Shown: positions 31,182 through 51,673, counted from the stretch's first letter. The stretch is 64,000 nucleotides of DNA from an uncultured Candidatus Saccharibacteria bacterium (GCA_964617815.1 CAZTXY010000003.1:473-64472), one strand, 5' to 3'. The notes: generated by a model from the sequence alone, not told the origin. Translations and numbers: made by a program.

Positions 31182-31203
31182 TAGGAGAACATAGGACTTT
31201 TTG

Positions 31204-31266: not shown

Positions 31267-31294
31267 TAGCGACATTTTCAATCACTTTTTCTTT

Positions 31295-32563: not shown

Positions 32564-32569
32564 ATTTCA

Positions 32570-33508: not shown

Positions 33509-33532
33509 CGCCGAGTATTAAAATAGACTCTA

Positions 33533-36500
33533 ATGTCCGAAAAACCTTTAATTTCAGTGATAATGCCAGCACACAATGCTGGCTCATACATTGCAAGCGC
33601 CATCGACAGCATTTTAGCGCAGTCGTTGGCTGATTTTGAATTAATAATCATTGACGATGGTAGTTCGGATACTACTGGCCGAATAGCGGTGGATTACGCG
33701 AGTCGTGATTCGCGCATAAAAATTATTGTAAATCAAAATAATCGTGGTGTTGCAAATAGTCGTAACAGGGGGATACAGCAAGCATTAGGGCAGTATATTG
33801 CTTGGCAAGATGCAGATGACATTGCTATGCCAAATCGACTTAAACTACAGTTTGACTTTTTAGAGACGCATCCAGAAGTGGGAATGGTGGGCGGGAGTTT
33901 GGAATTTTTTGATCAAAATGGAACTAAAAGTCTCCGAGAATATGAGACAGAGGATGCTAAACTTCGGGCTAAACTTTTTCGTTATCAAGCAGTTAGCCAG
34001 CCCGCGGGCATGGTGCGCAAAGTTTGTTTTGCCACAGCTGGGTTATTTGATGAAAGTTTAGAAACAGCTGAAGATTTAGATATGACTTTTCGCATTGCCA
34101 GAACATGGAAGCTGGCAAATATTCCTGAGGTGGTGATTAAATATCGGATGAACACGGATTCCCTGACTTATAAACGATTAAAAAATTTAGAGCAGAACAC
34201 TTTTCGTATTCGAGCAAAATATAAGGGTGAAAGCGCTTTTAATTATAGTGTCGGCGATCTCTTTTATAATATTTTGCAAAAACTGTCGTTGCATTTAATG
34301 CCACCTGCATTTCGCATTTGGTTATTTAGTAAGCTGCGCAACAAAAAAGCTCAGTCTCAAAAAATAATTTTTGCATGTCATAGTTATTACCTAGACAGTG
34401 GAGCAATTATTGATTCGCATCGAAACTTAACTTTTACTTTTTTGGACCGCTACTATCCGAATGGCTATGCGGTCTTGCGGCATAGTCTATACACGGGCGG
34501 AGAATCACGCATTTATAAGCAGGGGATTGACGGGCCATTTTGGAAAATTCCAGTGATTGGTAAGCTTCCAAGCTTTTTGCGTTACTTTGCTGAAATAAAA
34601 ATTAATTTGTTGTATTTGTTAGTTCAGTTAGTGCGTCACAACATTACTTTTATTGCCATAGATCCTCTGTCTGCTTGTGGGGGAGTGATTTTAAAACGCC
34701 TTGGTTTTTCGGTAAATGTTATTTTTATTACTCCAGATTTTGCGCGGAAGCGTTTTGAAAATAAAATCTTGAATCAACTTTATTTTAAGCTTGATAAATT
34801 TGCCACGGTTTACTCAGATATAAATTATTGCTCTGCGCAGACTGTAATTGATTATAAAAAAGAGTTGTATGGAGAAGTTTTGTCAGACAAACTAGTCCAC
34901 ATGCCAAACAGTCCTGCACCGTGGTTAGTTGAACCGTTGCGCGGAAGTGCAAAAACGCCATATCGCTGTGTCTATGTTGGCGATATTGGTCAACAGCTAG
35001 ATTTTAAAATGATTTTTTCTACTTTGGAAAAACTCAAAGCAGAATTCCCAGAGATCCATTTGCAAGTGATTGGAGATGGCGAGAAAAGGGAGGAGCTTGA
35101 GGCATGGGTCAAAGAGCAAGGCTACACTACCATCAAATTTCTTGGCCATGTGACATATGAAAAGGCGCTCTATCAAATTGCTACAGCAGAGGTTGGACTA
35201 GCGCTTTATAATGGGCAGCTTAATTTTGATGAGTTCCGAGACTCAATTAAAGTTCGCGAGTATCAATCTCTCGGAACAATTCCAATTGCTTCGAGTAGCG
35301 CAGTAGCCAGTGCAAATGAAATCGTTTCGTATGGCAGTGGCGTGGTTATTAAAAATACAGCAGAAGATTTATTTTTGAGTTTGCAAAATATTTTTTGTGA
35401 CCGACAAAAATCTGCAGAAATGATGCGTGCCTGTTTGAGAAATTATAGTGTTTACCGAAATATTTTTGATCAGTTATACCAGAGAACTCAAGTTTTGCAA
35501 AAAACTTCAGTATCTCAAACTGCAAAACCGGCCCGAGGGCTGTGGATTTGGGCGGTGGTGGGTTTAAATTTGCTGGCGGTTGGCTTTTTATTCATAACTC
35601 AACTGCAAGTTATGCGAGGCCATAATTTAATTGGCTTAATAGACCAAGGTTTTATGGAACTTAATCCGACTTTTCAGTTAGCTCGTAATTTATTTGTTTG
35701 GGATTCGACACGTGGGCTTGGTGAGTCACAATTTTTGTTTGTGCCTTCTGGTTTAGCGGAAGCTTTTTATGTTTATTTACTGTCTTGGGTGTCACCGAGC
35801 TTTTCGGTTTTAAGTTTTTTAAAGATATTTCTGCTCCAGTTGGCTTATTATGCGGGTGGCTTCATCACACTCGCTACATTTGTAAAATATGTGCTTAAAA
35901 AGTCGCTTACGGCTCAGATGCTCTCTGTCGTGTCCTTATTTAGCTTGCTTGGTATTTTAAATTTGCATTTTTTCCAAAGCTCAAGCGCTTTTTTGTTTAA
36001 TCAGCGTTACGATTTGTTCATTTTTAGTTTACTATTTTATAGTGTTAACAAAATTGGTTATGAGAAAAAAGGCTATGGGTTGTTTGTTTTGTCCTCACTG
36101 CTCTCGATTGGTTGCTGGACTTACATTGGTTTTTGGTTACCGTTTGTGTTGTTTTTGATTGCTTATGCTTTTTTAGTGCTTCGAAAATATAAAACATTGA
36201 TAGCTCTAGCTGTGCTTCATTTTTTACTGATTTTACCCGCAATAGTTTCCTTAGCTTTATTTTATAGTCAGGTTAATCCTGTGGCTAATACAGCCATTAG
36301 CTATAAGGACGTGATTTTTGACTATGCCAATCGAAATTCGACACTTAACCATATTACTGCCTTAATTGGCGGGGTAAATTGGGATTTGGCTTGGGGTTGG
36401 TTGCCAGGTGCTTTGGCTTATCCCTATGTTGCGCTGTTTGGACAGTGGCACGCGGGGCTGTTAGCTATGGGAATTTTTGCTGTATTTTTAATCGGGCAGA

Positions 36501-37810
36501 TGTTTGTAAAGAATGTTCCAAAGTCTGTTGTGTTGTGGTTAAATGGGACAGTTATTGTTTCTATATTTTTAATTGCCAGTTACAATAAACCTTTTGGCAA
36601 ACTTTTTGTGTGGTTGCTGAATAACTTTCCATTATTCATAGTTTTTCGTGAGTCACATAATAAAGTTTACCCAGTATTAATTTTAGCTTTGTTATTGGCT
36701 GGGCTGGCTGGGTTTATTGCGTCATCAGGGAAAGTTAAAAAAGCCCTAGCTGGTTTTTTAATAGTCTACTGCGGTGTCTTTTTATATGCAGGACTGCACT
36801 ACGGAATTTTGAGTCAACAAGGCGCATTTACTTTTCCAAACCAAACTTATCAAGCCCTCACTTCAACTATTCCGGAAGGCTCTCGTGTGCTTTGGCTTCC
36901 AGAATATTCATATGCCAAACGCTATAGTTATGGTTATGCTGGAAATACTATTACAAGATATGCTTTGCCATTTCGGCAGTTTGATATTTCCTATTTATTG
37001 GAGCGCGGGTTTCATAATCCGCTGACTCGCTCTATTCTCGACAACTTCAATTATGAGATTTATCCAAAAGGTCTGTATAATTTTGGCCTGCAACAGCCAT
37101 CTTTTGATGGTAATTTACTGAACCAAGGCAATATTCAGTACGTCATTTTTGATAAACAACTTATTGGGGACACTACCATTGTGCCTTTTGTGCAAAGTTC
37201 TTTATATCTTGGAAGCCTGAGAGCTGTAGAAAATTTAGAGGTAGTGTTAGAGGATGAGAATTTTGTGGTTTTTAAAAATAAAATTTCACAACCAGTTTTG
37301 CTCGCAAAAAATAGTCAGGTCAAGCAAAAGAGTCCGGTAGAATATCAAGTTTTAATTAAAGGACTAAAGGAGCCTACTGACCTAAGCTTACTTCAGGGTT
37401 ATGATGCTGGCTGGGCAACTGCATTTATGCCAGTAAATGCGGATTTTGATTGTCCGATTTTTGAAGAGCTTACTGCTTTACAGACAAAAGTTTGTGAAAA
37501 TAAAGATTTTTCTACATCTTTGTTTTCTACGATACGCTATAATTTTAGCGATGATTTGTTAATCAGTAGTCACAGCACATTTGAGGGATATGCGAACCGT
37601 TGGCGTCTTGACCCTGAAGTTTTAAAAACGCAGCTGCCAGAAAGTTCGTGGCAAGCCAATCCAGATGGAGGAATAGACGTTCTGTTGGTTGTTTACTATA
37701 AACCCCAAGCGCACTATTATGCCAGCTGGTTAGTCGCAATTTTAACGGCTTTAGGAATTTTTAGCTGGCTAGTTTATAGAAAATTTAGGCATAGAATTAA
37801 TAATTTATAA
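33533..37810 (+). CDS. Giant multidomain glycosyltransferase: N-terminal GT2 (GT-A), a central GT-B-like region, and a C-terminal polytopic membrane domain of about 650 aa
   Basis: ISVIMPAHNAGSYIASAIDSILAQS...IIIDDGSSDTT...QDADD marks the GT2 domain. The C-terminal half is almost entirely hydrophobic helices. Confidence 0.7.
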   Translation: MSEKPLISVIMPAHNAGSYIASAIDSILAQSLADFELIIIDDGSSDTTGRIAVDYASRDSRIKIIVNQNNRGVANSRNRGIQQALGQYIAWQDADDIAMPNRLKLQFDFLETHPEVGMVGGSLEFFDQNGTKSLREYETEDAKLRAKLFRYQAVSQPAGMVRKVCFATAGLFDESLETAEDLDMTFRIARTWKLANIPEVVIKYRMNTDSLTYKRLKNLEQNTFRIRAKYKGESAFNYSVGDLFYNILQKLSLHLMPPAFRIWLFSKLRNKKAQSQKIIFACHSYYLDSGAIIDSHRNLTFTFLDRYYPNGYAVLRHSLYTGGESRIYKQGIDGPFWKIPVIGKLPSFLRYFAEIKINLLYLLVQLVRHNITFIAIDPLSACGGVILKRLGFSVNVIFITPDFARKRFENKILNQLYFKLDKFATVYSDINYCSAQTVIDYKKELYGEVLSDKLVHMPNSPAPWLVEPLRGSAKTPYRCVYVGDIGQQLDFKMIFSTLEKLKAEFPEIHLQVIGDGEKREELEAWVKEQGYTTIKFLGHVTYEKALYQIATAEVGLALYNGQLNFDEFRDSIKVREYQSLGTIPIASSSAVASANEIVSYGSGVVIKNTAEDLFLSLQNIFCDRQKSAEMMRACLRNYSVYRNIFDQLYQRTQVLQKTSVSQTAKPARGLWIWAVVGLNLLAVGFLFITQLQVMRGHNLIGLIDQGFMELNPTFQLARNLFVWDSTRGLGESQFLFVPSGLAEAFYVYLLSWVSPSFSVLSFLKIFLLQLAYYAGGFITLATFVKYVLKKSLTAQMLSVVSLFSLLGILNLHFFQSSSAFLFNQRYDLFIFSLLFYSVNKIGYEKKGYGLFVLSSLLSIGCWTYIGFWLPFVLFLIAYAFLVLRKYKTLIALAVLHFLLILPAIVSLALFYSQVNPVANTAISYKDVIFDYANRNSTLNHITALIGGVNWDLAWGWLPGALAYPYVALFGQWHAGLLAMGIFAVFLIGQMFVKNVPKSVVLWLNGTVIVSIFLIASYNKPFGKLFVWLLNNFPLFIVFRESHNKVYPVLILALLLAGLAGFIASSGKVKKALAGFLIVYCGVFLYAGLHYGILSQQGAFTFPNQTYQALTSTIPEGSRVLWLPEYSYAKRYSYGYAGNTITRYALPFRQFDISYLLERGFHNPLTRSILDNFNYEIYPKGLYNFGLQQPSFDGNLLNQGNIQYVIFDKQLIGDTTIVPFVQSSLYLGSLRAVENLEVVLEDENFVVFKNKISQPVLLAKNSQVKQKSPVEYQVLIKGLKEPTDLSLLQGYDAGWATAFMPVNADFDCPIFEELTALQTKVCENKDFSTSLFSTIRYNFSDDLLISSHSTFEGYANRWRLDPEVLKTQLPESSWQANPDGGIDVLLVVYYKPQAHYYASWLVAILTALGIFSWLVYRKFRHRINNL

Positions 37811-37811
37811 C

Positions 37812-37879
37812 CGTCATCCTGATCCGCCTCCGGCGGAGAAGGATCTCTGAGATGCTTCATTTCACTCAGCATGACAGTG
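37812..37879. repeat. MITE/REP-like palindromic element, copy R4 (an R2-like core in inverse orientation with an internal 26-bp hairpin insertion)
   Basis: gtcatcctgatccgcctccggcggagaaggat is the reverse complement of the R2 core, followed by ctctgagatgcttcatttcactcagcatgacagtg. It begins right after the stop codon of the giant GT. Confidence 0.65.
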
Positions 37880-37892
37880 CTCGATAGATAAT

Positions 37893-39515
37893 ATGTTTAA
37901 GAGCTTATTCCAAAAATATAAATCAACAATACCTTATTGGGCAGTGGTTTTGGCCATTGTTTTGCCATGGTTTTTAGGGTCTGGGTATCTCTTTTTGACT
38001 GATTATGTCTGGGGTCCAGTGTTTCCGCTTCATTGGGGAGAGCCTGATTTTTTGTTTAATTTTACTTTCTCAATGTTTGGCTGGGTGATATCTTCGGCTT
38101 TTTTACAAAAATTGTGGCTGACAGCAGTTATCGCCTTATTACTTTTTGGCGGACGGTTTTTAGCCAAACAATTTTTAGACAAACCCCTCGTCATTTTTGG
38201 TGCTAGTTTGATATTTTTGTTTAACCCCTTTGTTTACGACAGGCTTCTTTATGGGCAAGTTTTTGTTGTGGCCAGCTTAGCCAGTTTGGTTTGGCTTACG
38301 GGTTACTCTGTGACTTGGTTAAAAACTTTATCGTATAAGTCTGCTAGTCAGATGGGTGTGTGGATTGCGCTTTGTGTTTTGTGGTCGCCACATTTTGTGT
38401 TTATAGTAGGATTATTTCTAGTAGCTTTATTTAGTGCGGTCATAGTAAGTCGTGGAGTTAGTAAAAAACTTTTCTACCAGATAGGTCTAATTATTTTTAT
38501 GACGTTGCTGTTAAACGCAAATTGGTTAGTAGCTACAACCCTTGGCCAGTCACGCGCCACTGAGTTTGCTCAAACTCAGATTGGCCGCCAAGATTTTGAA
38601 GCGTTCCGAACAGCTGGTAATAGCACAGGTCAGGTTATTAGAAATGTGCTCCAATTATCTGGATTTTGGGGGAAGGATCAGTACCGCTACGCTGATTTAG
38701 CTCAAAACAAGACCAATTGGGGAAGAAGCTTTATTTTATTAGCACCTTTGATCATTTTTGGTTTCCTTGGTTTGATTCGAACTAAGGAGACTCGAGTATT
38801 GGGATTGTTGTCTATGGTGGTAGTAGTTGTTGCGACGTTGTTGTCACTTGGGCTTGGTACGCCATTTTCAACTAAACTAACTTATTGGCTGTTTGAACAT
38901 ATTCCGTTTTATGGCGGTTTGCGTGATACTCAAAAATGGAGCGCGCTTCTCGTGGTTGTCTATGGACTATGGTTTGCCTTTGGACTGAAAGCTTGGCAAA
39001 AGCTTTCTGTGGTTAAGAATCAGTTTGTCGCTTTGCATATTATTCTGGCCATTTCAATTGTGCTTTGGGCTCCACTATTATTATGGGGTTTTTGGACGCA
39101 AGCAAAGCCTCACTCATACCCAGAGAGCTGGTACCAGGCAGATCGTCTTTTAGTGAGCAATGGCTGTAGCGGTCAGACTCTGTTTTTGCCTTGGCATTTG
39201 TACATGAGATTCTCGTTTACCGATAGTGTGGTGGCAAACCCAGCAAAGCGTTTTTTTAGATGTCCCACCCTTTGGGGCACCAATCAGGAATTTGGGGGGA
39301 TAGATGACAATAGTGGTGACCAAAAAAGCCAAGCAATTCGTGCTTGGTTGGCAGATCTTGGCCAAAAACCGCATATTTTAAAGGAATTAGACATTCAGAC
39401 TGTGGTTGTCGCCAAAGCCGGTGATTGGCCAAATTATTCCTGGGTCTCAAAGTTGCCGTATTTGATTAAGATGGAAGACAGCACTGAGCTGACTGTTTAT
39501 CAGGTTAAGCCATAA
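37893..39515 (+). CDS. Polytopic membrane protein, candidate GT-C-type glycosyltransferase
   Basis: About 14 TM helices and a soluble C-terminal domain. Cluster context. Confidence 0.5.
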   Translation: MFKSLFQKYKSTIPYWAVVLAIVLPWFLGSGYLFLTDYVWGPVFPLHWGEPDFLFNFTFSMFGWVISSAFLQKLWLTAVIALLLFGGRFLAKQFLDKPLVIFGASLIFLFNPFVYDRLLYGQVFVVASLASLVWLTGYSVTWLKTLSYKSASQMGVWIALCVLWSPHFVFIVGLFLVALFSAVIVSRGVSKKLFYQIGLIIFMTLLLNANWLVATTLGQSRATEFAQTQIGRQDFEAFRTAGNSTGQVIRNVLQLSGFWGKDQYRYADLAQNKTNWGRSFILLAPLIIFGFLGLIRTKETRVLGLLSMVVVVVATLLSLGLGTPFSTKLTYWLFEHIPFYGGLRDTQKWSALLVVVYGLWFAFGLKAWQKLSVVKNQFVALHIILAISIVLWAPLLLWGFWTQAKPHSYPESWYQADRLLVSNGCSGQTLFLPWHLYMRFSFTDSVVANPAKRFFRCPTLWGTNQEFGGIDDNSGDQKSQAIRAWLADLGQKPHILKELDIQTVVVAKAGDWPNYSWVSKLPYLIKMEDSTELTVYQVKP

Positions 39516-40310: not shown

Positions 40311-41177
40311 ATGAATAGCAGAATTCAGAAACTCAAAAATTATTTTAATCAGGAACAGAAAGTTGCAAAGACACTGTCTTCAGTAGTTTTAGTTTTTGCG
40401 TTTATGGCAGTTGTCATGCCAGCGCTTGCTGACTTTGTGTTGCAAGATGATAACTCATCCTGTGGTTATGGCTACGGCTACGGCTATGGCTATGGTTATG
40501 GGTATGGCTACGGTTACGGTTACGGCTGTGACGGTGGCGGTGGATCTTTGATTGTAGATCCTGGTGTAACTAAGACCGTTGACAACGGTACTCCTGCTCC
40601 AGGCGCAACAATTGTCTACACTATCACTGCACATAACTTTGGTAGCACAACAGTTAACGACGTGACTGCCACAGACAGTATCCCAGCTGGGATTACCTAC
40701 GTCAGTCATACACTCACTCAAGGTGTCTATAGTAATGTCACTAGCATCTGGAATGTGGGCACCCTTACCTCTGGTGGGGACGCGACTTTGACCATTACGG
40801 CTACCGTGGATGGTTCCACTGTTGGAACTGTAATAAACACAGTTACAATTACCGGTTCTATCCCAGTTGACCCAAATAGTGCCAATAATACAGCATCTGC
40901 CAATATTGTAGTGACTACATCTGGCGGCGGTGGTGGCGGAAATACAGGCGGCGGCGGTGGTAGTACTGGTGGTGGCGGTGGTAGTACTGGTGGAGGTAGC
41001 AATGACGGAAGTGTTTTGGGAGATAGTACAGGGCCAACTGTAACCCCTCCAACTGGCCGAGTCCTCGGAGACAGCACTTTACCACGAACAGGCTTAGCAG
41101 TAACTTTAGTTCTTACCCTAGTTGCAGTTTCATCTTTAGCCTTTGTTTCTAGAGGTAAAGCAGTTAAAGCAGAGTAG
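40311..41177 (+). CDS. LPXTG-anchored surface protein with a (GY)10 repeat, a DUF11-like repeat domain and a poly-Gly linker
   Basis: Signal/TM N-terminus, YGYGYGYGYGYGYGYGYGYG, the DUF11-like block TVDNGTPAPGATIVYTITAHNFG...VTATDSIPAGITYVSHT, then LPRTG followed by a hydrophobic stretch and an RGK tail. Confidence 0.7.
   Translation: MNSRIQKLKNYFNQEQKVAKTLSSVVLVFAFMAVVMPALADFVLQDDNSSCGYGYGYGYGYGYGYGYGYGYGCDGGGGSLIVDPGVTKTVDNGTPAPGATIVYTITAHNFGSTTVNDVTATDSIPAGITYVSHTLTQGVYSNVTSIWNVGTLTSGGDATLTITATVDGSTVGTVINTVTITGSIPVDPNSANNTASANIVVTTSGGGGGGNTGGGGGSTGGGGGSTGGGSNDGSVLGDSTGPTVTPPTGRVLGDSTLPRTGLAVTLVLTLVAVSSLAFVSRGKAVKAE
40464..40526 (+). repeat. Hexanucleotide microsatellite (GGYTAY) repeated about 10 times, encoding the GY repeat
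   Basis: ggttatggctacggctacggctatggctatggttatgggtatggctacggttacggttacggc. Confidence 0.7.
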
Positions 41178-41239
41178 TTAAAAGTTTTTCGTTCAGACAC
41201 CAACATTCAATTTATCAATCTAGGCAAATTCACAAACAT

Positions 41240-41560
41240 ATGACTGGTCCATCTCTGGCAGAAAAAATGGCCCATTGCCCTGGCTGTCAAAAGCCAGTCC
41301 TCAATGCAGGACAATTCTGGTCCCATGCAGAATTCTCGATACGATGTCCATGGTGTCAGTCTAATATCCAAATTACTATAGAGCCTAAAATTACCGTAAA
41401 GTCCTTAAAACCTGAAGAGAAGACGGATGATGGAAATACTCAGAATATCCAAAGTATGCAAGTCCCACCTGAAGGGGGCCTAAAAATAATCGGTTACATT
41501 TATCCAGAAAGTCAAAAGACAAAAGACGGCCAAGCTGGCCAGAATAATCAGCAGTCCTAA
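41240..41560 (+). CDS. Small zinc-ribbon protein, hypothetical
   Basis: CPGC...CPWC pair. 106 aa. Confidence 0.35.
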   Translation: MTGPSLAEKMAHCPGCQKPVLNAGQFWSHAEFSIRCPWCQSNIQITIEPKITVKSLKPEEKTDDGNTQNIQSMQVPPEGGLKIIGYIYPESQKTKDGQAGQNNQQS

Positions 41561-41797
41561 CAGAGTTTAACAATTTATTGAGCGGACTACGTGCGCCGCG
41601 GGACTACGAGAGCCCATCTAAGAACCTCACTACTCAAGTGTGTATTTTACACATTTGTAAGTGGGAAGCTTGGATGGGCTCTTTATTTACTCCTTCACCA
41701 CAGCGATATGTATAGCGCTCTGGTGTGAGGGTGGAAGAGCACCGTAAAGGTCGATATAGTGTGTAATTAGTGGTCTGAAAATTATTTCAGCCACTGC

Positions 41798-42400
41798 TTG
41801 AGGAGTGACATGAAAAGATTATTTGCAGGATTAGCCATGCTGACGCTGGCCGCAGCTGCCTTACCGGCTTCTGCAGACCTGTCCGCGAGCGATAATTCTA
41901 TGGTTAACTACACAACTAACTTTCTTGTTGGTTTGTATCTAAATCATAGCAATAACGCAAATATCCGCAATACTATCAATACTCGCAGTCGTACTGGCGG
42001 CAATGCTATTATTGCCGATGATACAATTGAACGTTCTGGAATTGTAACAGGGGATGCTGACGCTTTAACTGACGTTGGTAACCGTGCTAATTCTACGGAT
42101 GTGACAGCTGGTATTGACGTTACATTGCCAGCTACGCCTGACGCTTCCGCCACGGATTCTTCTGACTTAACGTTAGAACAAGACGAGACGCTTGAAGTCG
42201 TTAGTAACACAACTGACAATGCTGACGTTGAAAACTTGCTCGATACATCTGCTGACAGTGGCAATAATATGCTTTCTGCAGGAGACGAAGTAGCTGATAG
42301 TTGGATTTTCAGTGGCTCCGGGCGTGCATACAGTGTGGTCAATAATGTTCTCAATTCGGTGCGCGAGAATATTTCAATCACACGCAGGCTAGCCCCATAA
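41798..42400 (+). CDS. Secreted Thr/Ser/Asn/Asp-rich protein, paralog A (shares a module with the 1272-aa surface protein)
   Basis: Signal peptide MKRLFAGLAMLTLAAAALPASA. Motifs NADVENLLDTSADSGNNMLSAGDEVADS. Confidence 0.6.
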   Translation: MRSDMKRLFAGLAMLTLAAAALPASADLSASDNSMVNYTTNFLVGLYLNHSNNANIRNTINTRSRTGGNAIIADDTIERSGIVTGDADALTDVGNRANSTDVTAGIDVTLPATPDASATDSSDLTLEQDETLEVVSNTTDNADVENLLDTSADSGNNMLSAGDEVADSWIFSGSGRAYSVVNNVLNSVRENISITRRLAP

Positions 42401-42475
42401 ATATCAACTACATTTGTAGTAAAAATTAATATGTTGTGTCCGCAATAAAAGCGGGCACACACAAGGACTTATTGT

Positions 42476-43075
42476 ATGAAAAAAATTATTGCAGGCGCAG
42501 GTTTGGTTGCTATGTTGGCAGTCACCGGTGGCGTAGCTTCTGCTTCCACCTTTACTGCAGACGACAGTTCTAACTTGTCTTTGACAAACAGCATGAAGAG
42601 CATTCGCGCTATCTTAAACCACACTCAAGTTTTGACTGTTGGTGGTGCAAACATTGCTACTTCTAACACTGGTAACTTTGCTATTTCTGCTGGCGATGAA
42701 GTCAATGGTTCTACCGTTGGTACTGGCCAAGCTGAAGCTGTTACTGGAAGCGACACTCTAGGTAACGACTCCGATACTGGCGTCAACATTGATGCTACTA
42801 TGGACGACAACCACGCTTTCTACGTCAACGATAGCTCTACTTTGACAGAAAACAACAACGATGAAGAAATCGAAGCTGTTGATAACAACACTCAAGTAAG
42901 CACTTTGCTTGATAGCTCTGCTTCCACTGCTAACAGCGGTAACGTTGCAGTAGCTGCTGGCGACGAAGTCAATGACTTCACTGGTACATCTGCTGGCTCC
43001 ATTGCTGGTAGCGTAACCACTCGCACAGTTGACATGGTTATGTCTCGTTTGAACATGATCCGCCGCTCTAACTAG
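42476..43075 (+). CDS. Secreted Thr/Ser/Asn/Asp-rich protein, paralog B
   Basis: Signal peptide MKKIIAGAGLVAMLAVTGGVASA. LLDSSASTANSGNVAVAAGDEVND is homologous to the paralog A motif. Confidence 0.6.
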   Translation: MKKIIAGAGLVAMLAVTGGVASASTFTADDSSNLSLTNSMKSIRAILNHTQVLTVGGANIATSNTGNFAISAGDEVNGSTVGTGQAEAVTGSDTLGNDSDTGVNIDATMDDNHAFYVNDSSTLTENNNDEEIEAVDNNTQVSTLLDSSASTANSGNVAVAAGDEVNDFTGTSAGSIAGSVTTRTVDMVMSRLNMIRRSN

Positions 43076-43223
43076 TTTTAGGGTTCGGATTATTTTTTTG
43101 GGAGGGCCCCAAAAGGGTCCTCCCAAAATAAGCTTTAATCATTATGGTAGACAGGGGCTTGGCGTGCTTCTGGAGAGACTATGGCACAAAGCCTTTGCCT
43201 ATCAATCAATTAGATAAACAATT

Positions 43224-46200
43224 ATGAAATTTTTAAATATTACAGTAATTAGAAAATATAGTGATAAGTTTTCCGGCAACCGCTTCGGGCATGCTTGGAG
43301 TTTATTGTTATTTGTCGGCTGGCTAGCAATGAAGGAAATCCGTAGTTTTTATGGGAAAGTAATTTTAAGCCAACGGGCAGTTAAGCCACTTGCTTTTAAT
43401 CAGTCTTGGCACCAAAAACTTTCTCAGACTGCTCTTTCAGTAGTTCTAGAACGACACCAAGGTTTCAATAATTCTAAAATAGAAACAGTCAAACATGCCA
43501 CTAAAACCGTTAGCCTTGATGGGCTGTTTCAGACATGGTCCTCTGCTAGATTGTCTGTTCCTCTATTTTTTCAAAAATCTTTTGCAATTTTAGCAATTGC
43601 CTTTTTAGTCTTGCCTTTGGCACGTCCTGCCTTGGCTGATGAAGTAACTCCGCCACCGATTGAGACACCCTCTAATGTAGAAACAGAGCCAATTTTAAAC
43701 CAAGGTACAGTACTTGATGTTCAAGAGGGTGTAACCGTATCATCTGACTCATTACCTGAAAGCGAAGATGGCGCTGGCACGGCTCTTATTGACGGTGAGC
43801 TGCCAGAAAACTTACAGGAACATTTAAATCCTGATCAGAATACCGAAGAAGGAACTACAGATCCAGAAGTGGCTGACCCAGCTCCAGCGATAATTTTTGA
43901 AGATACAACAACAGGAAATAATGCTTTGTGTGAGTCTAATTTAGACTCTCCAATTGTTCAAACTGAGCCAGCAACTCCAGAAGGTGACCCGAATGTTGCT
44001 TTGGAAAATTCTGACCCTCAGCTTACCGACTTAGAAGTGGTAGCAGAAGATCCAGATGAAGTAACTGCTGTTCCCGCAGAGGCGGCTGGATGTAACGGGC
44101 AGGGTGGTCGGGCTGTAGTGGTTGCAGACGACGATTCAGAAGTAAATGTAGACCAAACAGTAACTCAAGAAGTCTCTATTATAAATACAAATGATGTCGA
44201 GCTTGTTAACGACCTTGACTCAGAAGCAGTTAGTGGACAGAACTTAGTTTTAACAGAAGCCGACGGTCAAGATGTCACAGTTTCTACCGGTGATGTTAAT
44301 GTCGTTGCTAATGTTTTTAATGTAGAGAATAATAACCTGACAAATTCGGAAATCGTTGAATTAACTGAGACCTTTAATAATCTTAGTAACGACGTAATTA
44401 TGAATCAACCAGAAAAGTCTCAAGCGCAAAAGGCGCAAGACTTAGTCTCTGGAATTTGTAGTGAGTCAGCACAGGTTAGTGATAGTTCAGAAGCCAATAT
44501 CGACTGTAAAAGTTTTTCTACTTTTAGTCTGACAAATAAAAATACTGCAGACATTGAAAACAATGTTGATGCTACGGGTGTTTCGGGGCAGAATATTATT
44601 GAAGGAGTTGAAGAAAATGCCAATATTATTACTGGCGACGTTAATGTTATTGTAAACATTCTTAACATTGTTAACATTAACCTTTATAACTCCACCTTAA
44701 CTATTGCTAATACAAATATTTTTGGTAATTTTACAGGTGACGTAGTTTTGCCGTCCGAGTTATACTTTACTAATTTCATGTCGGTGGGAGCAGCGGATAA
44801 TTCTAACGCCTCTCTGGACAGCGTTAAAAAAGTAGTTATCGATATTAGTAACGACAACGAAGCTGATATTGAAAACAACGTCACAATTAATGGAGTTACT
44901 GGTGACAACGCGCTTATCGGTACTGGAACCCCGGCTGGCACAGAAGGTGACGTAGACGACAGCGAAATTTCCAGTGGCGACGCACAAAGTGGTGCTAGCG
45001 TTCAAACTTTAGCCAACACCAACATTATCAACGGAAAATGGTACATTGGTATGGTTAATGCGCTTGGTTCTTGGAGTGGAGATGTCTACTCTTTGCCAAA
45101 CGAAGTCGCCATGATTCCTACAACCACAGGATATTCCTTCTTTGCCTCAACTGCCGAGAATGCTGACGGAACTTATGAATTATTAGATGACGCTATTTTA
45201 AACGCTTCCAGCACAGAAGAAACAGAAGTTACTATTAGCAATGAAAATGACGCTAAGATTGTTAACAACGTTAACATTGACGCTATTAGTGGTGAAAATG
45301 GAATTATCAACGAAGAAGTTGAAGACTCTAGCGTGCGAACCGGAAATACTTTAACTTTGGCTAGTATTTTAAACATTGTAAACTTAAACTTAATTAATGC
45401 AGATGTCTTTATTGGAGTAGTAAATGTTCTTGGAACTTGGGATGGAAATGTCGTCTTTGGTTACCCAGACTTAGCAGTTTCGCAGAGCATGTCAGGAAAC
45501 GTTCCTCAAAAAGCTCAAGACTCTGCTCGTTACACGGTAGATTATGCCAACACCGGAGACGGTTCTATGGCCGATACTTGGGTTGAATGGCACTTTGCTC
45601 CAAATGTATTTGATTTTGATGCTGTGTTTGGGCCAAATAATACAAACCCACAGTATTTGTTGGCTCGCCCAGGAATTTTGAAAGTTAATCTTGGTCGTTT
45701 ACTTCCAGGGGCTGTTGGTAGCTTCGATATTGGTCTTCGCGCTAATCAAAACTTGCAAGGTGGAGCTACTATTGGTAACTACGCTCGCATTTATGGTGAT
45801 GGCCCAGAAAAGAACAAGACTAATAATGAGTTTCTTTTACAAACTGTAGTTCCAACCTCCCAAGTAAACTCTGGGACTGGCGCTGGAAACCAAAACAACA
45901 CAGGAACAGACAATAACACTGGAAATTCAGGTAATCAGAATAATCAGGACAATAACTCAGGCCAAAATAATACTGGTAATCAAAACAATACTGGTACAGA
46001 TAACAATTCTGGCGATCAAAATAATAACAATCAGAATAATCAGGACTCAGACAACACTCAGAACGATCAAAATGACGAGAATGCTGATACTGAAAACCAG
46101 AACGAACAAAATCAAAACACTGAAAATGATGAAAATGGTCCGCTACCACCAGGAGCAGAAATCTTTGACGCCGGATCACTTCAGATTTCGAAGAGCAATA

Positions 46201-47042
46201 ACTCTAGTGGAAGAACTCTTGCTCGAGGCGAGTCAGTAACCTTTACTATCATTGTAAAAAATACTACTAGCCAGCCAATTTTTAACACAGTTATTTTTGA
46301 CACCTTATATTCACCAAGTACTTCAGAAACAGATACTGTACCAATCCCACTAGATACAGTTAAAGCCGGTGAAGAAGTCGAACTATCTTATGACCTCACA
46401 ATCGGAGCGCAGAGCGCCTTTGGAGTCTATACCAACTCAGCTTATGTTGAAGGTATGGATTGGGGTCTCCGTCCAGTTCGTTCTTTAAGTGCCACTAGCA
46501 GCTTTACAGTTGGGACTGCAGTACTTCCCCAAAATGACAATGTAAAGCCAGACCAGATTGAGGAAGAACCTGTTACAGAAGAAGAAGTTGTTGTAGTTAA
46601 AGAAGAAACTCTCAGAGAAAAAGTTGCTCGCCGAGCGCAAGAATTGAGAGACACTCAATCTCAATTATTGGGAGCTATACTTGGGCAAACAGATAGTAAT
46701 GAGCAGCCACCAATTGGTCGTGGTCCAGTATCTTTTGCAAAAAGCTCTAGTACAGGCTCAGCTTTAAACCAGACTCCTGAATTATTGGCACAGACTGGTA
46801 AAATTGGGTCCGCGGCTTTCACAGATCTTTATTCGGAATATTTAGCCAAGTCAGCAGCATTAGACAAGCCTGTTGTTAGAGCTGCAAGTGGCTGGAAGAG
46901 CTTCTTTAACCTAGACATGCTTCTAATTGCATTCTTATTCTCAATTGGTTATGCTGTATCTTCTTTCCGCGAAAAACGAAAAAAGCAGTTGGGTAAAGCA
47001 CCAAGCTTAAAACCCGCTCATCGTTTTACAAGCTTCCTGTAA
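43224..47042 (+). CDS. Giant surface protein (1272 aa ORF) with four copies of an Asn-rich module, an N/Q/T/D low-complexity linker, a DUF11-like domain and a C-terminal TM anchor
   Basis: An internal signal-peptide-like segment (SFAILAIAFLVLPLARPALA-DEV) suggests the true start is downstream of 43224, possibly TTG near 43550. The module ADIENNV..TGVSGQNII...TGDVNV..NILNIVNINL occurs four times. The C-terminus has LAQTG, a hydrophobic helix and REKRKK. Confidence 0.65.
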   Translation: MKFLNITVIRKYSDKFSGNRFGHAWSLLLFVGWLAMKEIRSFYGKVILSQRAVKPLAFNQSWHQKLSQTALSVVLERHQGFNNSKIETVKHATKTVSLDGLFQTWSSARLSVPLFFQKSFAILAIAFLVLPLARPALADEVTPPPIETPSNVETEPILNQGTVLDVQEGVTVSSDSLPESEDGAGTALIDGELPENLQEHLNPDQNTEEGTTDPEVADPAPAIIFEDTTTGNNALCESNLDSPIVQTEPATPEGDPNVALENSDPQLTDLEVVAEDPDEVTAVPAEAAGCNGQGGRAVVVADDDSEVNVDQTVTQEVSIINTNDVELVNDLDSEAVSGQNLVLTEADGQDVTVSTGDVNVVANVFNVENNNLTNSEIVELTETFNNLSNDVIMNQPEKSQAQKAQDLVSGICSESAQVSDSSEANIDCKSFSTFSLTNKNTADIENNVDATGVSGQNIIEGVEENANIITGDVNVIVNILNIVNINLYNSTLTIANTNIFGNFTGDVVLPSELYFTNFMSVGAADNSNASLDSVKKVVIDISNDNEADIENNVTINGVTGDNALIGTGTPAGTEGDVDDSEISSGDAQSGASVQTLANTNIINGKWYIGMVNALGSWSGDVYSLPNEVAMIPTTTGYSFFASTAENADGTYELLDDAILNASSTEETEVTISNENDAKIVNNVNIDAISGENGIINEEVEDSSVRTGNTLTLASILNIVNLNLINADVFIGVVNVLGTWDGNVVFGYPDLAVSQSMSGNVPQKAQDSARYTVDYANTGDGSMADTWVEWHFAPNVFDFDAVFGPNNTNPQYLLARPGILKVNLGRLLPGAVGSFDIGLRANQNLQGGATIGNYARIYGDGPEKNKTNNEFLLQTVVPTSQVNSGTGAGNQNNTGTDNNTGNSGNQNNQDNNSGQNNTGNQNNTGTDNNSGDQNNNNQNNQDSDNTQNDQNDENADTENQNEQNQNTENDENGPLPPGAEIFDAGSLQISKSNNSSGRTLARGESVTFTIIVKNTTSQPIFNTVIFDTLYSPSTSETDTVPIPLDTVKAGEEVELSYDLTIGAQSAFGVYTNSAYVEGMDWGLRPVRSLSATSSFTVGTAVLPQNDNVKPDQIEEEPVTEEEVVVVKEETLREKVARRAQELRDTQSQLLGAILGQTDSNEQPPIGRGPVSFAKSSSTGSALNQTPELLAQTGKIGSAAFTDLYSEYLAKSAALDKPVVRAASGWKSFFNLDMLLIAFLFSIGYAVSSFREKRKKQLGKAPSLKPAHRFTSFL

Positions 47043-47055
47043 ATAAAATTTAAAA

Positions 47056-47088
47056 ATCTCCCCAGTGTATTCTGGGGAGATTTTTGTT
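47056..47088 (+). terminator. Intrinsic terminator (atctcccca gtgtattc tggggagat then ttttgtt)
   Basis: 9-bp stem followed by a T-tract. Confidence 0.6.
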
Positions 47089-47099
47089 ATACTAGCGCT

Positions 47100-47696
47100 A
47101 TGCATTGGTTATTTAAGAGGTTTATTCTCGCTATTATTATCCTTGTTCTTGGTGCGGCCATCTTAAATGGTCAATATTTTTTGCGTAATTTAAAACAATG
47201 GTTTTGGCCCCCACAACCTAAAGTGGTCACAACAACACAAGTTAACTTATCGCCAGACACCTTAATTATTGAAAGTTTAGGCATTAGCGCGCCAGTTGTA
47301 TACATAGAGGAGAAAACAGAAACCGCTTATCAAGAAGCTTTGGAACGGGGAGTGGTTCATTTTCCTGATACTGCTAAAGTCGGAGAGGCTGGAACTGTTT
47401 ATATTTTTGGACACTCTTCTGATTATCCTTGGGGTAAGGGGAAATTTAAAACAGTTTTTGCAACACTCCCACAAATTAAAATTGGCAGTAGCATTTTTAT
47501 TACCAATCAAAATTCGCAACCGTTTATTTATAAAGTTATCTCAACAAAAATTATTTCCCCAAATGACACTTCGGTTTTGGAACAGGACCTAAGTAAGCAT
47601 TTGTTAATACTGCAAACTTCTTATCCAGTGGGCACTGCGCTTAAACGTTACATAGTAATAGCAGAACTTGTCCTCTCGGAGGGGAGTCTTCCATAA
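47100..47696 (+). CDS. Sortase-family transpeptidase homolog (catalytic Cys position reads Ser)
   Basis: N-terminal TM anchor, sortase beta-barrel motifs (IESLGISAPV, active-site His in TVYIFGHSS, Arg in KRYIVIA). The TLxTC box reads LILQTSYP: codon tct where tgt is expected. Confidence 0.6.
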   Translation: MHWLFKRFILAIIILVLGAAILNGQYFLRNLKQWFWPPQPKVVTTTQVNLSPDTLIIESLGISAPVVYIEEKTETAYQEALERGVVHFPDTAKVGEAGTVYIFGHSSDYPWGKGKFKTVFATLPQIKIGSSIFITNQNSQPFIYKVISTKIISPNDTSVLEQDLSKHLLILQTSYPVGTALKRYIVIAELVLSEGSLP

Positions 47697-49230: not shown

Positions 49231-49268
49231 GCTAGTTCCTAGTAACTAGTATCTAGTGACTAGTCTTA
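49231..49268. repeat. TAGT-heptad array filling the whole spacer between the TlpA-like stop and the XRE start (gcTAGTTCC TAGTAAC TAGTATC TAGTGAC TAGTCTT)
   Basis: Five 7-bp units. Confidence 0.6.
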
Positions 49269-50321
49269 TCCAAAAGTAAAGGTAAAGGCTTCAAATCCCG
49301 CACCGGAAATTTCAATAATTAGAGTGTATTCATTATTCTCATCAGCGCTGTATAAAGTGTAGAGTTGTGAGTCACCAACAGTGACAGGGGCAACCTCTTC
49401 GTTATTGATAAATATTTTTAGTTTTGAGCCAAGTTTACTGGCTGCTACCATGTGCACTTCTTTGCCTTGATAGCGTAGTCGTATCTTTCCTTTTCCAGAA
49501 GCGAGGACTGCTTTTTCAGGCTCTATAATCCAGTCACCTTCAAGCTGAAATTCATTTAGATTTTGAACGCTTGTAAAAGAAAAAGTTTGCGATGCTTGGG
49601 TGTTGGTAAATTTTTGGGCCAAGTGCTCGAGACGATTTGAACCAAAATACATTTCTGGACTACCTATACTTTTTGAGTTTTGATCTGAATCTAAAACAGT
49701 TTTTTTATCAAGCCCTAAAAGTTGTCTGATTAACGATTCAGTTTCTTCATACTTACCTTCACCAAAATGGGTATAGACAATATTACCCTCTTGATCAATT
49801 AAGTATTTAGCAGGCCAGTATTGGTTCTTGTAAGCGTTCCAAGTCGCAAAATTATTGTCCTGGGCAACCGGGTAAGTAATTTTGTAGCGTTTTAAGGCAG
49901 TCTCTACATTTTTTGTAACTTTTTCAAACTCAAATTCCGGAGTGTGTACGCCGATGATTACAAGACCTTGGTCTTTATAAGTCTCATGCCACTTTGTTAT
50001 ATAGGGGAGTGTGCGAATACAATTAATGCAAGAGTATGTCCAAAAATCAATTAAAACAACTTTGCCACGATATTCTGCCAGGGTTGCTGCTTGCTTGCCA
50101 GAAGGTAAGTTGAGCCATTTGTTAATACCCACAAATTCTGCTGCTGGTCCTTGGCTTTTTAACTCCGCTGGTTTTTCATCTTTTGCATTATCAATTCCAA
50201 GCAGAGAAGACACGGAGTTTGTTTTTGTGCCATCTGTATTAGTTTTAGACGTCTTGTCTATATATATACCACCAGCAATAAGTAGAACAACAACTATGAT
50301 TATGTATGGAAGTGCTTTCAT
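49266..50321 (-). CDS. Membrane-anchored thioredoxin-fold thiol:disulfide oxidoreductase (TlpA/ResA/DsbE-like) with an extra C-terminal domain
   Basis: Redox motif WTYSCINC (CxxC) in a TlpA-like fold. N-terminal TM. 351 aa. Confidence 0.7.
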   Translation of the reverse strand: MKALPYIIIVVVLLIAGGIYIDKTSKTNTDGTKTNSVSSLLGIDNAKDEKPAELKSQGPAAEFVGINKWLNLPSGKQAATLAEYRGKVVLIDFWTYSCINCIRTLPYITKWHETYKDQGLVIIGVHTPEFEFEKVTKNVETALKRYKITYPVAQDNNFATWNAYKNQYWPAKYLIDQEGNIVYTHFGEGKYEETESLIRQLLGLDKKTVLDSDQNSKSIGSPEMYFGSNRLEHLAQKFTNTQASQTFSFTSVQNLNEFQLEGDWIIEPEKAVLASGKGKIRLRYQGKEVHMVAASKLGSKLKIFINNEEVAPVTVGDSQLYTLYSADENNEYTLIIEISGAGFEAFTFTFG

Positions 50322-50324
50322 ATT

Positions 50325-50367
50325 TTTAGTGACTAGCCACTAGTAACTAGCTTCTAGTGTTACTGCA
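50325..50367. repeat. TAGT-heptad array (TAGTGAC TAGCCAC TAGTAAC TAGCTTC TAGTGTT)
   Basis: Five units between the ccdA stop and the TlpA-like start. Confidence 0.6.
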
Positions 50368-50376
50368 GCTTCTTAA

Positions 50377-51090
50377 TTATTTTAATAACTTTTGTTCTAG
50401 TGTGCCAAAGTTATAGTACTCCAAGATTTTAGCTTGAAGGACTAAGTCATACTGGAAATACATAGCGACGGCAAGTCCAATAATCAACACTCCGAAAACT
50501 TGTTGCATTCTTGTTGCGTATTGGGCAAAGCTGCGAACCTTTGTTGTTACTAACTGTCCGCCGTAGGCAATAATTAACATGGGAATTCCAGCACCAACCG
50601 CGTAGGCGACAAGCAAAATAGAAGCGCGACCTACTTCAGTGGAAGTGGCAATTAGAGTCAGAATAGAGCCAAGAACTGGGCCAGCGCATGGTGTCCAGAT
50701 TACACCGAGCATTACACCAAGGACAAAGCCGCCAAAATTGCCCGTGCCAGCTGCAGTAGCTGTTTGGTTAGCTTTGTTGATAAAACCACTTAAGTAAACG
50801 GTCAGTTTTTCAAACGGCGTTGGCCAAATCATAAATAGTCCAAAAATTCCGAGAGCGACAATCGCAATATTGCGCAGAACATCTGGAGCGATGTTTAGGT
50901 TTGTAACTAAATAAGAGAGGAGTAGTCCGGTTAAGGCAAAGGTTAAAACGAACCCTAGGGCAATAAACAAGGGCCTTGTTTTGCTTTGTTGTCCTACTGA
51001 GGCGCCAAGCAAAATAGGGAGTAGGGGTAGAATGCATGGGGCACCAATGGTTAGGATGCCTGCTATAATCGCAAAAAGAATTTGTAGCAT
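50377..51090 (-). CDS. ccdA: Cytochrome c-type biogenesis / thiol-disulfide electron transporter CcdA (DsbD beta-domain family)
   Basis: Six TM helices with the two conserved Cys (GAPCILPLLP and WTPCAGPVLG). Confidence 0.8.
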   Translation of the reverse strand: MLQILFAIIAGILTIGAPCILPLLPILLGASVGQQSKTRPLFIALGFVLTFALTGLLLSYLVTNLNIAPDVLRNIAIVALGIFGLFMIWPTPFEKLTVYLSGFINKANQTATAAGTGNFGGFVLGVMLGVIWTPCAGPVLGSILTLIATSTEVGRASILLVAYAVGAGIPMLIIAYGGQLVTTKVRSFAQYATRMQQVFGVLIIGLAVAMYFQYDLVLQAKILEYYNFGTLEQKLLK

Positions 51091-51097
51091 AATTTAG

Positions 51098-51135
51098 TTT
51101 GCTAGTAACTAGTCACTAGTGGCTGGTCACTAATT
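51098..51135. repeat. TAGT-heptad array (gcTAGTAAC TAGTCAC TAGTGGC TGGTCAC TAATT)
   Basis: Between the thioredoxin stop and the ccdA start. Confidence 0.55.
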
Positions 51136-51136
51136 A

Positions 51137-51673
51137 TTACTTGATATTTGTTTTTAATGAATCTATATCCCCACCATTCCATTTAGTAACCATGTTTCCT
51201 TGTTGATCGATTTGGACAAATGTATGCTGGTAGGTAACGCCGTATTTCTTTTTTAGATCGGTGTTGCTGTCGTAGTCAGTTTTAAGCACAGTCACCCCGC
51301 TAGGGATTTCGCCAAGCTTAGATTTAAAAGCACTGTCGGCGGCTTTACAAAAAGGACACCAAGGGGCATGAAAGAAGAGAACAACTTTTTGACCTTGTGC
51401 TTGTTCGTCTTTAACTGTGCTTTCAGAATAATCTTTATAGGCTCCAGCCTTTTTGACCATAGATTCTTGGCTGGTGCTTCCTGCGTCGCTGTTTGGCTTG
51501 TCTTTTTCCATCATAGCGTTTTCATTTGTGGCTGGTGTTTGTGTTTCTTCCATCTTTTTATCATCTACTACCACGTCGCTGGCTATATCTTGCTTATTAT
51601 CCTGGCTTAAGACAACTCCAATAACAATAATTGCGATTAACACTAATATCCCCGCGAGCATTTTTTTATTCAT
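51137..51673 (-). CDS. Membrane-anchored thioredoxin-like protein
   Basis: WCPFC active site. N-terminal TM anchor. 178 aa. Confidence 0.7.
   Translation of the reverse strand: MNKKMLAGILVLIAIIVIGVVLSQDNKQDIASDVVVDDKKMEETQTPATNENAMMEKDKPNSDAGSTSQESMVKKAGAYKDYSESTVKDEQAQGQKVVLFFHAPWCPFCKAADSAFKSKLGEIPSGVTVLKTDYDSNTDLKKKYGVTYQHTFVQIDQQGNMVTKWNGGDIDSLKTNIK

Follow-up and report, generated by a model that had tools for sequence, protein, structure and literature searches.

We have analysed a cluster of genes for surface proteins in a 64,000-nucleotide stretch of DNA from an uncultured Candidatus Saccharibacteria bacterium (this whole 64-kb stretch is hereafter called the window). The region between positions 40311 and 47696 comprises six co-oriented genes on the plus strand that encode, in this order, a surface protein with an LPRTG motif, a Zn-ribbon-like protein, two small secreted proteins, a protein of 1272 amino acids (aa) and a sortase homolog. 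The two small proteins and the 1272-aa protein share an Asn-rich module, and the sortase homolog carries a Ser at the position of the catalytic Cys; we regard the region as a surface-protein locus associated with a sortase, in which the repeat module is undescribed and the sortase atypical. The window has a G+C content of 43.6%, its proteins matched database entries from metagenome-assembled genomes of Patescibacteria, and the gene order was kept in six contigs of related populations (L001 to L006). The features of the locus, with the evidence for each, are as follows.

40311..41177, plus strand: LPRTG surface protein, 288 aa (open reading frame, ORF; DUF11, PF01345 E 1.9e-29 and TIGR01451 E 3e-13)
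40461..40529, plus strand: C-(GY)10-G-C at aa 51-73, an imperfect GGYTAY hexamer array (codon string; Tandem Repeats Finder, TRF)
40566..40907, plus strand: DUF11 domain of the LPRTG protein, aa 86-199 (PF01345, 102.7 bits vs. a cut-off of 24.6)
41079..41093, plus strand: LPRTG sorting motif, aa 257-261, followed by a hydrophobic segment and an RGKAVKAE tail (sequence)
41240..41560, plus strand: Zn-ribbon-like protein, 106 aa, with two CxxC pairs (sub-threshold Pfam matches)
41810..42400, plus strand: secreted 196-aa protein with signal peptide and two short modules, no anchor (module profile; AlphaFold2, AF2, model; ratio of nonsynonymous to synonymous substitution rates, dN/dS)
~41885-42136 and ~42149-42385, plus strand: modules of the 196-aa protein (module profile)
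42476..43075, plus strand: secreted 199-aa paralog with signal peptide and two short modules, no anchor (BLASTP; window-derived profile)
~42557-42811 and ~42824-43063, plus strand: modules of the 199-aa paralog (window-derived profile)
43224..47042, plus strand: anchored protein of 1272 aa (ORF; homologs of 600-1800 aa in Patescibacteria)
44133..44417, plus strand: module 1 of the large protein, aa 304-398 (independent profile, independent E-value, i-E, 3.4e-11; dN/dS 0.01)
44484..44759, plus strand: module 2 of the large protein, aa 421-512 (i-E 4.6e-19; dN/dS 0.01)
44799..45089, plus strand: module 3 of the large protein, aa 526-622 (i-E 1.3e-14; dN/dS 0.03)
45201..45470, plus strand: module 4 of the large protein, aa 660-749 (i-E 2.9e-20; dN/dS 0.02)
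45456..45866, plus strand: first DUF11-like immunoglobulin-like (Ig) domain of the large protein, sub-threshold (PF01345 E 0.0077, 17 bits vs. 24.6)
45867..46139, plus strand: N/Q-rich low-complexity spacer of the large protein (38% N, 14% Q; indels)
46176..46478, plus strand: second Ig-like domain of the large protein (DUF7507/DUF11), at threshold (PF24346 27.2 bits vs. 27; PF01345 24.8 vs. 24.6)
46902..47042, plus strand: C-terminal transmembrane (TM) helix and basic tail (REKRKKQLGK...) of the large protein (sequence; 100% conserved vs. L003)
47052..47085, no strand assigned: perfect hairpin with a 14-bp stem and A/T runs on both sides, terminator-like (consensus match alone)
47100..47696, plus strand: 198-aa sortase homolog in which Ser (TCT, 47619-47621) replaces the catalytic Cys (PF04203 E 5.7e-21)

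A first profile of the module was derived from the window itself, using hand-delimited repeats of the three proteins that aligned over ~85-100 residues. To avoid circularity, an independent profile was built from 57 modules of 19 distant family proteins, with the window lineage excluded. The independent profile found four modules in the large protein (i-E from 3e-11 to 3e-20) and two in the 196-aa protein (E ~1e-6 each, 1.7e-11 for the whole protein). The 199-aa protein was tied to the family by the window-derived profile and by its paralogy to the 196-aa protein (33% identity, BLASTP E 3e-15). This, together with an alignment of the modules of the small proteins against those of the large protein, confirmed the original prediction that one module is common to the two small proteins and the large one, which holds four copies of it. 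That prediction had also placed a single module in each small protein; the module is indeed present, but there are two per protein, both of a shorter form without the terminal VNxFGxWxGD strands. The regular expression offered as its definition did not hold when taken literally, since it matched only twice, and the relation exists at the profile level.

The module is an all-beta unit of ~85-100 aa with the rough consensus N-x-N-x-A-x-I-x-N-x-V-x(3)-A-x-[ST]-G-x-N ... [ST]-G-D-A ... V-N-x-x-N-x-N ... V-N-[IV]-F-G-x-W-x-G-D-I. Its Asn content was 12-14%, compared with 4.6% in the other window proteins. We considered whether the likeness between modules might reflect Asn-rich composition alone and rejected this on account of the invariant Gly and Asn columns and of the E-values of the independent profile. 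As had been anticipated, the module did not correspond to a named domain: neither Pfam-A nor NCBIfam gave a match when the locus proteins, single modules, the family consensus and typical family members were scanned, and sequence and profile searches of the PDB with three module alignments returned chance matches alone. A named domain does occur elsewhere in the locus, the DUF11 of the LPRTG protein, which corrects the earlier account on this point.

The AF2 model of the four-module region (aa 291-759 of the large protein) consisted of all-beta modules made of long hairpins, with a mean predicted local distance difference test score (pLDDT) of 66.8, cores at 85-95 and a predicted template modelling score (pTM) of 0.66, the latter suggesting a defined arrangement between the predicted modules. 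The 196-aa protein was modelled with a mean pLDDT of 64.5 and module cores at 83-87. The gene of this protein had been placed at 41798, with a product of 200 aa. Such an ORF exists, but its start is most likely the ATG at 41810 rather than the TTG at 41798, as this ATG is preceded by GAGGAG and gives the 196-aa product found in database entries. Neither small protein carries a sorting motif or a TM segment. The 196-aa protein ends with a hydrophobic strand followed by two Arg (ISITRRLAP, 42371-42400) and the 199-aa protein with LNMIRRSN (43049-43075).

A hydrophobic strand followed by Arg-Arg also ends other small or secreted module proteins (IRFRRLTH, ITVRRNR and FFTLRRAR). For this comparison, the C-termini of the window proteins were set beside those of L007:5044-5640, L007:5761-6363, P0145, P0152 and L008:4789-6066. 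The conserved C-terminal strands of these anchor-less paralogs may act as docking or donor strands.

We have then looked at the size of the family. Word-indexed homolog searches with the 196-aa protein and with the small-protein alignment retrieved near-identical sequences and two further small homologs alone, so that the family was revealed solely by an exhaustive HMMER scan with the module profile. Applied to 1.84 billion representative proteins, clustered at 50% identity, it yielded 1536 clusters at E<=1e-3, of which 741 reached E<=1e-10 and 52 reached E<=1e-30. Most family proteins contained four (85/172) or five (55/172) modules, and two-module proteins were rare, being limited to a few clusters. 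A C-terminal TM segment ended 106 of the 172 proteins, with L[PA]xTG near the C-terminus in five.

A locus scan with one genome per species, for which the alignment of the last module was the query, gave 79 loci with the module family. All readable locus titles belonged to the Candidate Phyla Radiation (CPR, or Patescibacteria), in the Microgenomates, Parcubacteria or Saccharibacteria groups; the lineages named were Levy-, Woese-, Gottesman-, Roizman-, Davies- and Amesbacteria, Saccharibacteria (for example L011, L018 and L069), and Kaiser-, Taylor-, Lloyd- and Nealsonbacteria. Many records carrying the operon are titled "uncultured Gammaproteobacteria bacterium" (L009, L014, L016, L017, L019, L021, L024, L027 and others), in contigs of 0.1-0.8 Mb. 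In the one such record that was checked, L014, the protein was 89% identical to a Levyibacteriota protein, and its title is thus wrong.

The operon itself recurs, usually with two or three neighbouring paralogs of the family. In at least 60 of the 79 loci, a secreted protein of ~420 aa precedes a TM-anchored protein of ~700-800 aa. The former has no anchor and often ends in a hydrophobic ...LLALLGL tail (...DLLALLGL in Microgenomates operons), and the latter ends with a TM segment and a basic tail. A third paralog of ~370-400 aa, present in 13 loci, carries (VLG...)LP[AVT]TG followed by a TM segment and a basic tail and is a true sortase substrate. A sortase homolog was found within 2.5 kb downstream in 34 of the 79 loci and somewhere in the locus in 40. 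The window operon follows this plan, as adjacent paralogs with different anchoring (two secreted, one TM-anchored) are followed by a sortase homolog. It is also a variant of it: two small secreted proteins replace the 420-aa one, the anchored protein is enlarged and the LPxTG partner is a DUF11 protein. In the nearest genome relative, L007, two small proteins and a large one are arranged in the same way. A literature search for a sortase-linked repeat family of the CPR found no description of the module or of the operon. The module thus marks a large, unnamed protein family that is restricted to the CPR in all records with readable titles and whose operon context is conserved.

To evaluate how the locus evolves, we used L003 as the reference for dN/dS (87% DNA identity to the window). 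Every gene of the locus was under purifying selection, with dN/dS values of 0.08 for the LPRTG protein, 0.04-0.08 for the 196-aa protein, 0.04-0.21 for the small proteins together and 0.12 for the sortase homolog. Within the large protein, constraint was strongest on the four modules (dN/dS 0.01-0.03, protein identity 97-98%, dS 0.4-1.2), and variation lay in the N-terminal extension, the acidic region, the N/Q spacer (as indels) and the stalk. The small paralogs were 98-100% identical in protein across lineages (99% for the 196-aa protein). Module copy number, which the original prediction had proposed to compare among strains, proved constant at four.

A block of about 2 kb (~41200-43200) showed 96-100% DNA identity to L003, against 74-90% in its flanks. 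It contains the Zn-ribbon gene, a 250-bp intergenic stretch and both small module genes, with dS of 0.05-0.2 vs. 0.5-1.2 in the flanks. The pattern suggests recent exchange or recombination, a sweep, or constraint at the nucleotide level, and it is the opposite of that of a diversifying coat. The intergenic stretch 41561-41809, which is 100% identical, may hold a regulatory element.

Outside its modules, the large protein is composed, from the N-terminus, of an extension, a signal-peptide-like or signal-anchor segment (aa 117-139) and a strongly acidic Pro-rich region (36 acidic residues, 1 basic). The four modules are followed by a DUF11-like domain, the N/Q-rich spacer, a DUF11/DUF7507 domain, a stalk with an ILGQ motif, the C-terminal TM segment and the basic tail. 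The extension (aa 1-110, 43224-43553) is open in L003 as well, with a dN/dS of 0.23, and is probably translated, as a cytoplasmic domain plus signal anchor. In the homologs, the signal peptide comes first, and translation from an internal TTG at 43551 would alternatively give the large protein a classical signal peptide. When the Ig domains were scored as isolated segments against Pfam, the first of them remained below threshold (see the list above); in P0009, an unmistakable DUF11 occupies the corresponding position (E 5.9e-12). No direct similarity between the DUF11 of the LPRTG protein and the C-terminal half of the large protein was detected by BLASTP, their relation being visible via Pfam alone. 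The N/Q spacer varied in length among lineages (72% identity, indels) and contains an 18-bp array detected by TRF at 45963-46026.

The LPRTG protein is organised as a signal peptide (cleavage predicted after ALA, at ~aa 40), DFVLQDDNSS, the C-(GY)10-G-C run, the DUF11 domain, a Gly-rich linker, VLGDST twice, LPRTG, a hydrophobic stretch or TM segment and a basic tail. Its DUF11 scored above curated cut-offs in both databases (for TIGR01451, B_ant_repeat, 49.5 vs. 24 bits). With the N-terminal signal peptide and the C-terminal LPRTG-LAVTLVLTLVAVSSLAFVS-RGKAVKAE, the protein is a complete predicted LPXTG sorting substrate, and it bears the sole LPxTG-type sorting signal of the window. The VLGDST motifs lie at 41007-41024 (SVLGDS) and 41058-41075 (RVLGDS), and the ILGQ of the large protein at aa 1149-1152. 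A [VI]LG[ADTES] motif occurs in ~75 of the 172 family proteins, concentrated 40-130 residues before the C-terminus, and in the sortase-substrate paralogs it sits a few residues ahead of LPxTG. The motif may serve surface proteins of the CPR as an extended signal for sorting or processing.

The original prediction attributed the Gly-Tyr run to a GGYTAY microsatellite of about ten units whose length could shift without frameshifting. The run is real, with (GY)10 encoded by 40464-40523 (GGT TAT GGC TAC GGC TAC GGC TAT GGC TAT GGT TAT GGG TAT GGC TAC GGT TAC GGT TAC), a closing Gly codon ending at 40526 and Cys codons on either side. The array is, however, imperfect, with a TRF period of 6, 9.7 copies, 86% matches and at most two identical hexamers adjacent. 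Its length did change in whole 6-bp units, from 10 in the window to 9 in L005 and L006 (93% DNA identity) and 8 in L001-L004 (87%); within a lineage it was fixed codon for codon, in the four assemblies with 8 units and in the two with 9, at an assembly level at which low-frequency variants could remain. All differences between lineages were synonymous or of whole units, and both Cys were kept. The length of the GY run thus changes in frame when diverged lineages are compared, with no change detected inside a lineage. Indels were also found in the Gly-rich linker. No Cys-bracketed (GY)n loop was present outside the window lineage among all loci fetched. Similarly, a metagenome scan with the LPRTG protein returned two ENA contigs that were already known plus generic DUF11 proteins, with no other (GY)n relative, and exact-sequence cluster look-ups of the LPRTG-protein alleles gave no match.

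The protein encoded at 47100-47696 is the sole sortase homolog in the window. It matched PF04203 above the cut-off (75 vs. 26.6 bits) and fell below the cut-off of every NCBIfam class, the best scores being those of class D (58 vs. 165), class C (40 vs. 160) and class E (35 vs. 160). In an alignment with 43 homologs from the loci fetched, the column of the catalytic Cys held 40 Cys and 3 Ser, with Ser in the window lineage alone: the window protein reads LQTSYP where 40 operon-linked homologs read LQTCxP (the position of the TLxTC catalytic motif), and the sortases of L003 (9723-10301) and L004 (9301-9879) carry the same Ser. The protein contains no Cys at all, and the catalytic His (FGHSS) and Arg (LKRYIV) are aligned and retained. 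Its dN/dS indicates that the gene is not a decaying pseudogene. In SrtA, the thiolate is the nucleophile and its replacement abolishes activity, so that canonical sortase chemistry cannot be assumed here. It follows that the window protein would use Ser, or would bind the sorting signal without cleaving it, or that LPRTG would be processed, if by any enzyme, by a sortase encoded elsewhere in the genome. The earlier suggestion that the adjacent sortase services the locus was right as to the link between module and sortase genes, which recurs downstream in 34 of 79 loci, but must be qualified by this replacement of the catalytic Cys. Among the natural variants of this well-studied enzyme, a Cys-to-Ser sortase kept under purifying selection beside an intact LPRTG substrate stands out as unusual; a working Ser-sortase would extend sortase chemistry, the alternative being an example of a sortase pseudo-enzyme.

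The interpretation that we favour, at slightly better than an even chance, is a conserved structural assembly of the envelope: the locus would encode an anchored module protein together with anchor-less paralogs that dock on it. According to this model, the large protein would be held in the membrane by its C-terminal helix, and its stalk (the two DUF11-type Ig domains and the N/Q-rich spacer) would project the four modules outward. The two small proteins, each comprising little beyond two short modules, would be exported unanchored and kept on the cell by module-to-module association, through beta-sheet packing, with the anchored paralog. Large and small proteins together would form a structural surface layer or fibril, in a structural rather than adhesive role. 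Beside them would stand a wall- or membrane-tethered DUF11 protein, with LPRTG at its base and a Tyr-rich, probably disulfide-closed GY loop at its distal tip. The flanks of the locus, which encode envelope-related glycosyltransferases and flippase-like, MmpA-like and thioredoxin/DsbD-type thiol-disulfide proteins, are in line with an envelope function. A bolder version, which we regard as rather doubtful, would see in the module a new self-associating building block of CPR surfaces, with anchor-less proteins templated onto an anchored paralog into the surface layer or fibrils of ultra-small bacteria. This would amount to a curli-like logic of nucleator and subunit on a monoderm envelope, with a dedicated sortase that would here have a serine nucleophile or be a non-catalytic, LPXTG-binding pseudo-enzyme.

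Several points weigh against the structural assembly. The surface-layer role of the family is putative, and the association of small and large proteins is deduced purely from their shared modules and from gene order. The 199-aa paralog was too diverged to be detected by the independent profile. The mean confidence of the AF2 models was moderate (pLDDT 65-67), and Foldseek searches with both models against the PDB, and with the large model against BFVD, gave nothing at E<=0.001 (TM ~0.1). The top matches of both models, none of them significant (E 0.03-2.5), were FapC, CsgA, HET-s-type amyloids and beta-helices. Finally, the logic of the canonical operon is altered in the window lineage, where the protein with LPxTG carries no module and the sortase is without its nucleophile.

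We have weighed four other explanations of the locus. Its proteins could be independent receptors or adhesins for the host cell of an episymbiont, with no co-assembly and with their clustering due to co-regulation or to the history of duplication. CPR bacteria are episymbionts whose enriched families have been linked to cell-cell interaction (PMC6744442), tandem paralogs commonly arise through duplication, and DUF11 or Ig-like stalks are typical of adhesins. Nevertheless, the order of secreted, TM-anchored and LPxTG-anchored proteins is kept across distant CPR classes, which speaks for roles that complement each other; two-module proteins with no anchor would not stay on the cell unless bound to something, and the extreme conservation of the modules is unlike that of adhesin tips that determine host range. 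We consider this explanation unlikely. A curli- or Fap-like functional amyloid or a beta-solenoid fibre, with the large protein nucleating the small subunits as CsgB does for CsgA, seems less probable still. It would account for anchor-less subunits that share Asn-rich strand-turn-strand repeats with a cell-bound paralog, and FapC, CsgA, HET-s-type amyloids and beta-helices did head the Foldseek lists; those matches, at E 0.03-2.5 and TM ~0.1, are no real structural match. In addition, no Curlin_rpt or Fap match was found in Pfam, the module has 85-100 aa instead of 19-23, and small two-module proteins are rare, the secreted paralog being ~420 aa long in most loci.

The original prediction saw in the region a variable surface coat or adhesin locus. 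That it concerns the surface or envelope was borne out by the signal peptides, the TM anchor, the LPRTG motif and the sortase homolog, but the locus is not hypervariable. A contingency locus would diversify the surface within populations through slipped-strand mispairing in the GY array and changes in module copy number, and we give this little credence. The in-frame differences of 10, 9 and 8 GY units among relatives and the indels in the Gly-rich linker and N/Q spacer are of the kind expected. The GY alleles, however, were codon-identical within lineages (in four and in two independent assemblies) and differed, together with synonymous substitutions, between lineages of 87-93% DNA identity; identical hexamers never stood side by side in runs longer than two, module number was invariant in modules with dN/dS of 0.01-0.03, and the small paralogs were 98-100% identical across lineages. 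Most improbable of all, in our view, is a pilus of the Gram-positive type, with the module proteins as pilins covalently joined by an adjacent pilus-type sortase. The succession of paralogous secreted proteins and a sortase gene does resemble pilus operons. Against this, there is one LPxTG paralog per operon, L[PA]xTG occurs in only 5 of 172 family proteins, the small window proteins have neither sorting motif nor TM segment, and the sortase scored 40 bits against a class C cut-off of 160 and has no Cys. The contingency and pilus explanations thus fail on their defining features.

The locus can be compared with several described systems. Pam pili of the CPR are Ig-like donor-strand-exchange filaments of two-domain pilins with chaperone-like partners; the pilin has a nine-stranded beta-sandwich N-terminal domain, a linker donor strand and a truncated Ig C-terminal domain, and the PamC/D chaperones are encoded in the operon (bioRxiv 10.64898/2026.03.03.709456). 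They resemble the present family in being a CPR-restricted, Sec-exported surface assembly of multiple paralogs, some with C-terminal TM helices, and are most prevalent in Saccharimonadia and Microgenomatia, but their description includes no sortase and no Asn-rich module repeated 4-6 times (bioRxiv 10.64898/2026.03.03.709456). Pam pili were also considered as the identity of the locus and judged, by the description in that paper alone, to be a different system.

With the sortase/LPXTG loci of monoderms (Firmicutes, Actinobacteria), the locus shares the LPRTG motif with its hydrophobic segment and basic tail, the adjacent PF04203 gene, the Ig-like stalks and, across the CPR, a module family recurrently followed by a sortase gene. 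It departs from them in that most module proteins have a plain C-terminal TM segment or no anchor, and in a sortase that fits no curated class and has Ser for Cys. The LPRTG protein is a clear member of the DUF11 proteins (PF01345, TIGR01451), to which the large protein is related through one at-threshold and one sub-threshold domain; the Asn-rich module is unrelated to DUF11, and the Cys-bracketed (GY)n loop was seen in the window lineage alone among the loci fetched. Curli (CsgA/CsgB) and Fap (FapC/FapB) likewise have Asn/Gln-rich strand-turn repeats common to a secreted subunit and a cell-bound paralog encoded side by side. In the window locus, by contrast, the repeat is four times longer, CsgG/E/F- or FapF-type secretion genes are absent, the envelope is of the monoderm type, and the module proteins have no sequence or significant fold match to either system. 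As in the simple-sequence contingency loci of Neisseria and Haemophilus phase-variable genes, a short tandem repeat lies in a surface-protein gene and its unit number differs between relatives, but the 6-bp GY unit never switches the gene off, has synonymous interruptions and showed no variation within lineages in the assemblies.

A large share of bacterial diversity belongs to the CPR, whose members live attached to other cells. To our knowledge, the proteins that build their surfaces are almost undescribed, type IV pili and the recently described Pam pili aside. The module family is widespread in the CPR, strongly conserved, absent from the domain databases searched and encoded in a recurrent operon with a sortase gene. 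It is for this reason a concrete candidate for a structural envelope component, one that can be tested in cultivated Saccharibacteria.

Among the remaining features of the locus, the 106-aa Zn-ribbon-like protein has no signal peptide and is 99% identical in protein to the L003 copy; no homolog of it was found among the 79 distant loci. The gap that separates the stop codon of the large gene from the sortase start codon holds the hairpin at 47052-47085. It resembles a bidirectional terminator or attenuator, and the sortase gene may consequently be transcribed separately or at a lower level.

Upstream, positions 28895-39515 hold an envelope polysaccharide cluster with family-2 glycosyltransferases and a Polysacc_synt flippase-like protein. 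Also encoded there are a 1425-aa protein in which glycosyltransferase domains are fused to a large multi-span membrane domain, and a protein of 540 aa that matched MmpA (trehalose lipid delivery) below threshold (E 1.7e-35, 122.6 bits vs. 210). Just downstream of the locus, on the minus strand (49266-51673), lie three genes for extracytoplasmic thiol-disulfide proteins, namely a Redoxin/Thioredoxin_10 protein, a DsbD/CcdA-type membrane protein and a thioredoxin, which may have a bearing on the Cys-bracketed GY loop and on the four Cys present in the large protein.

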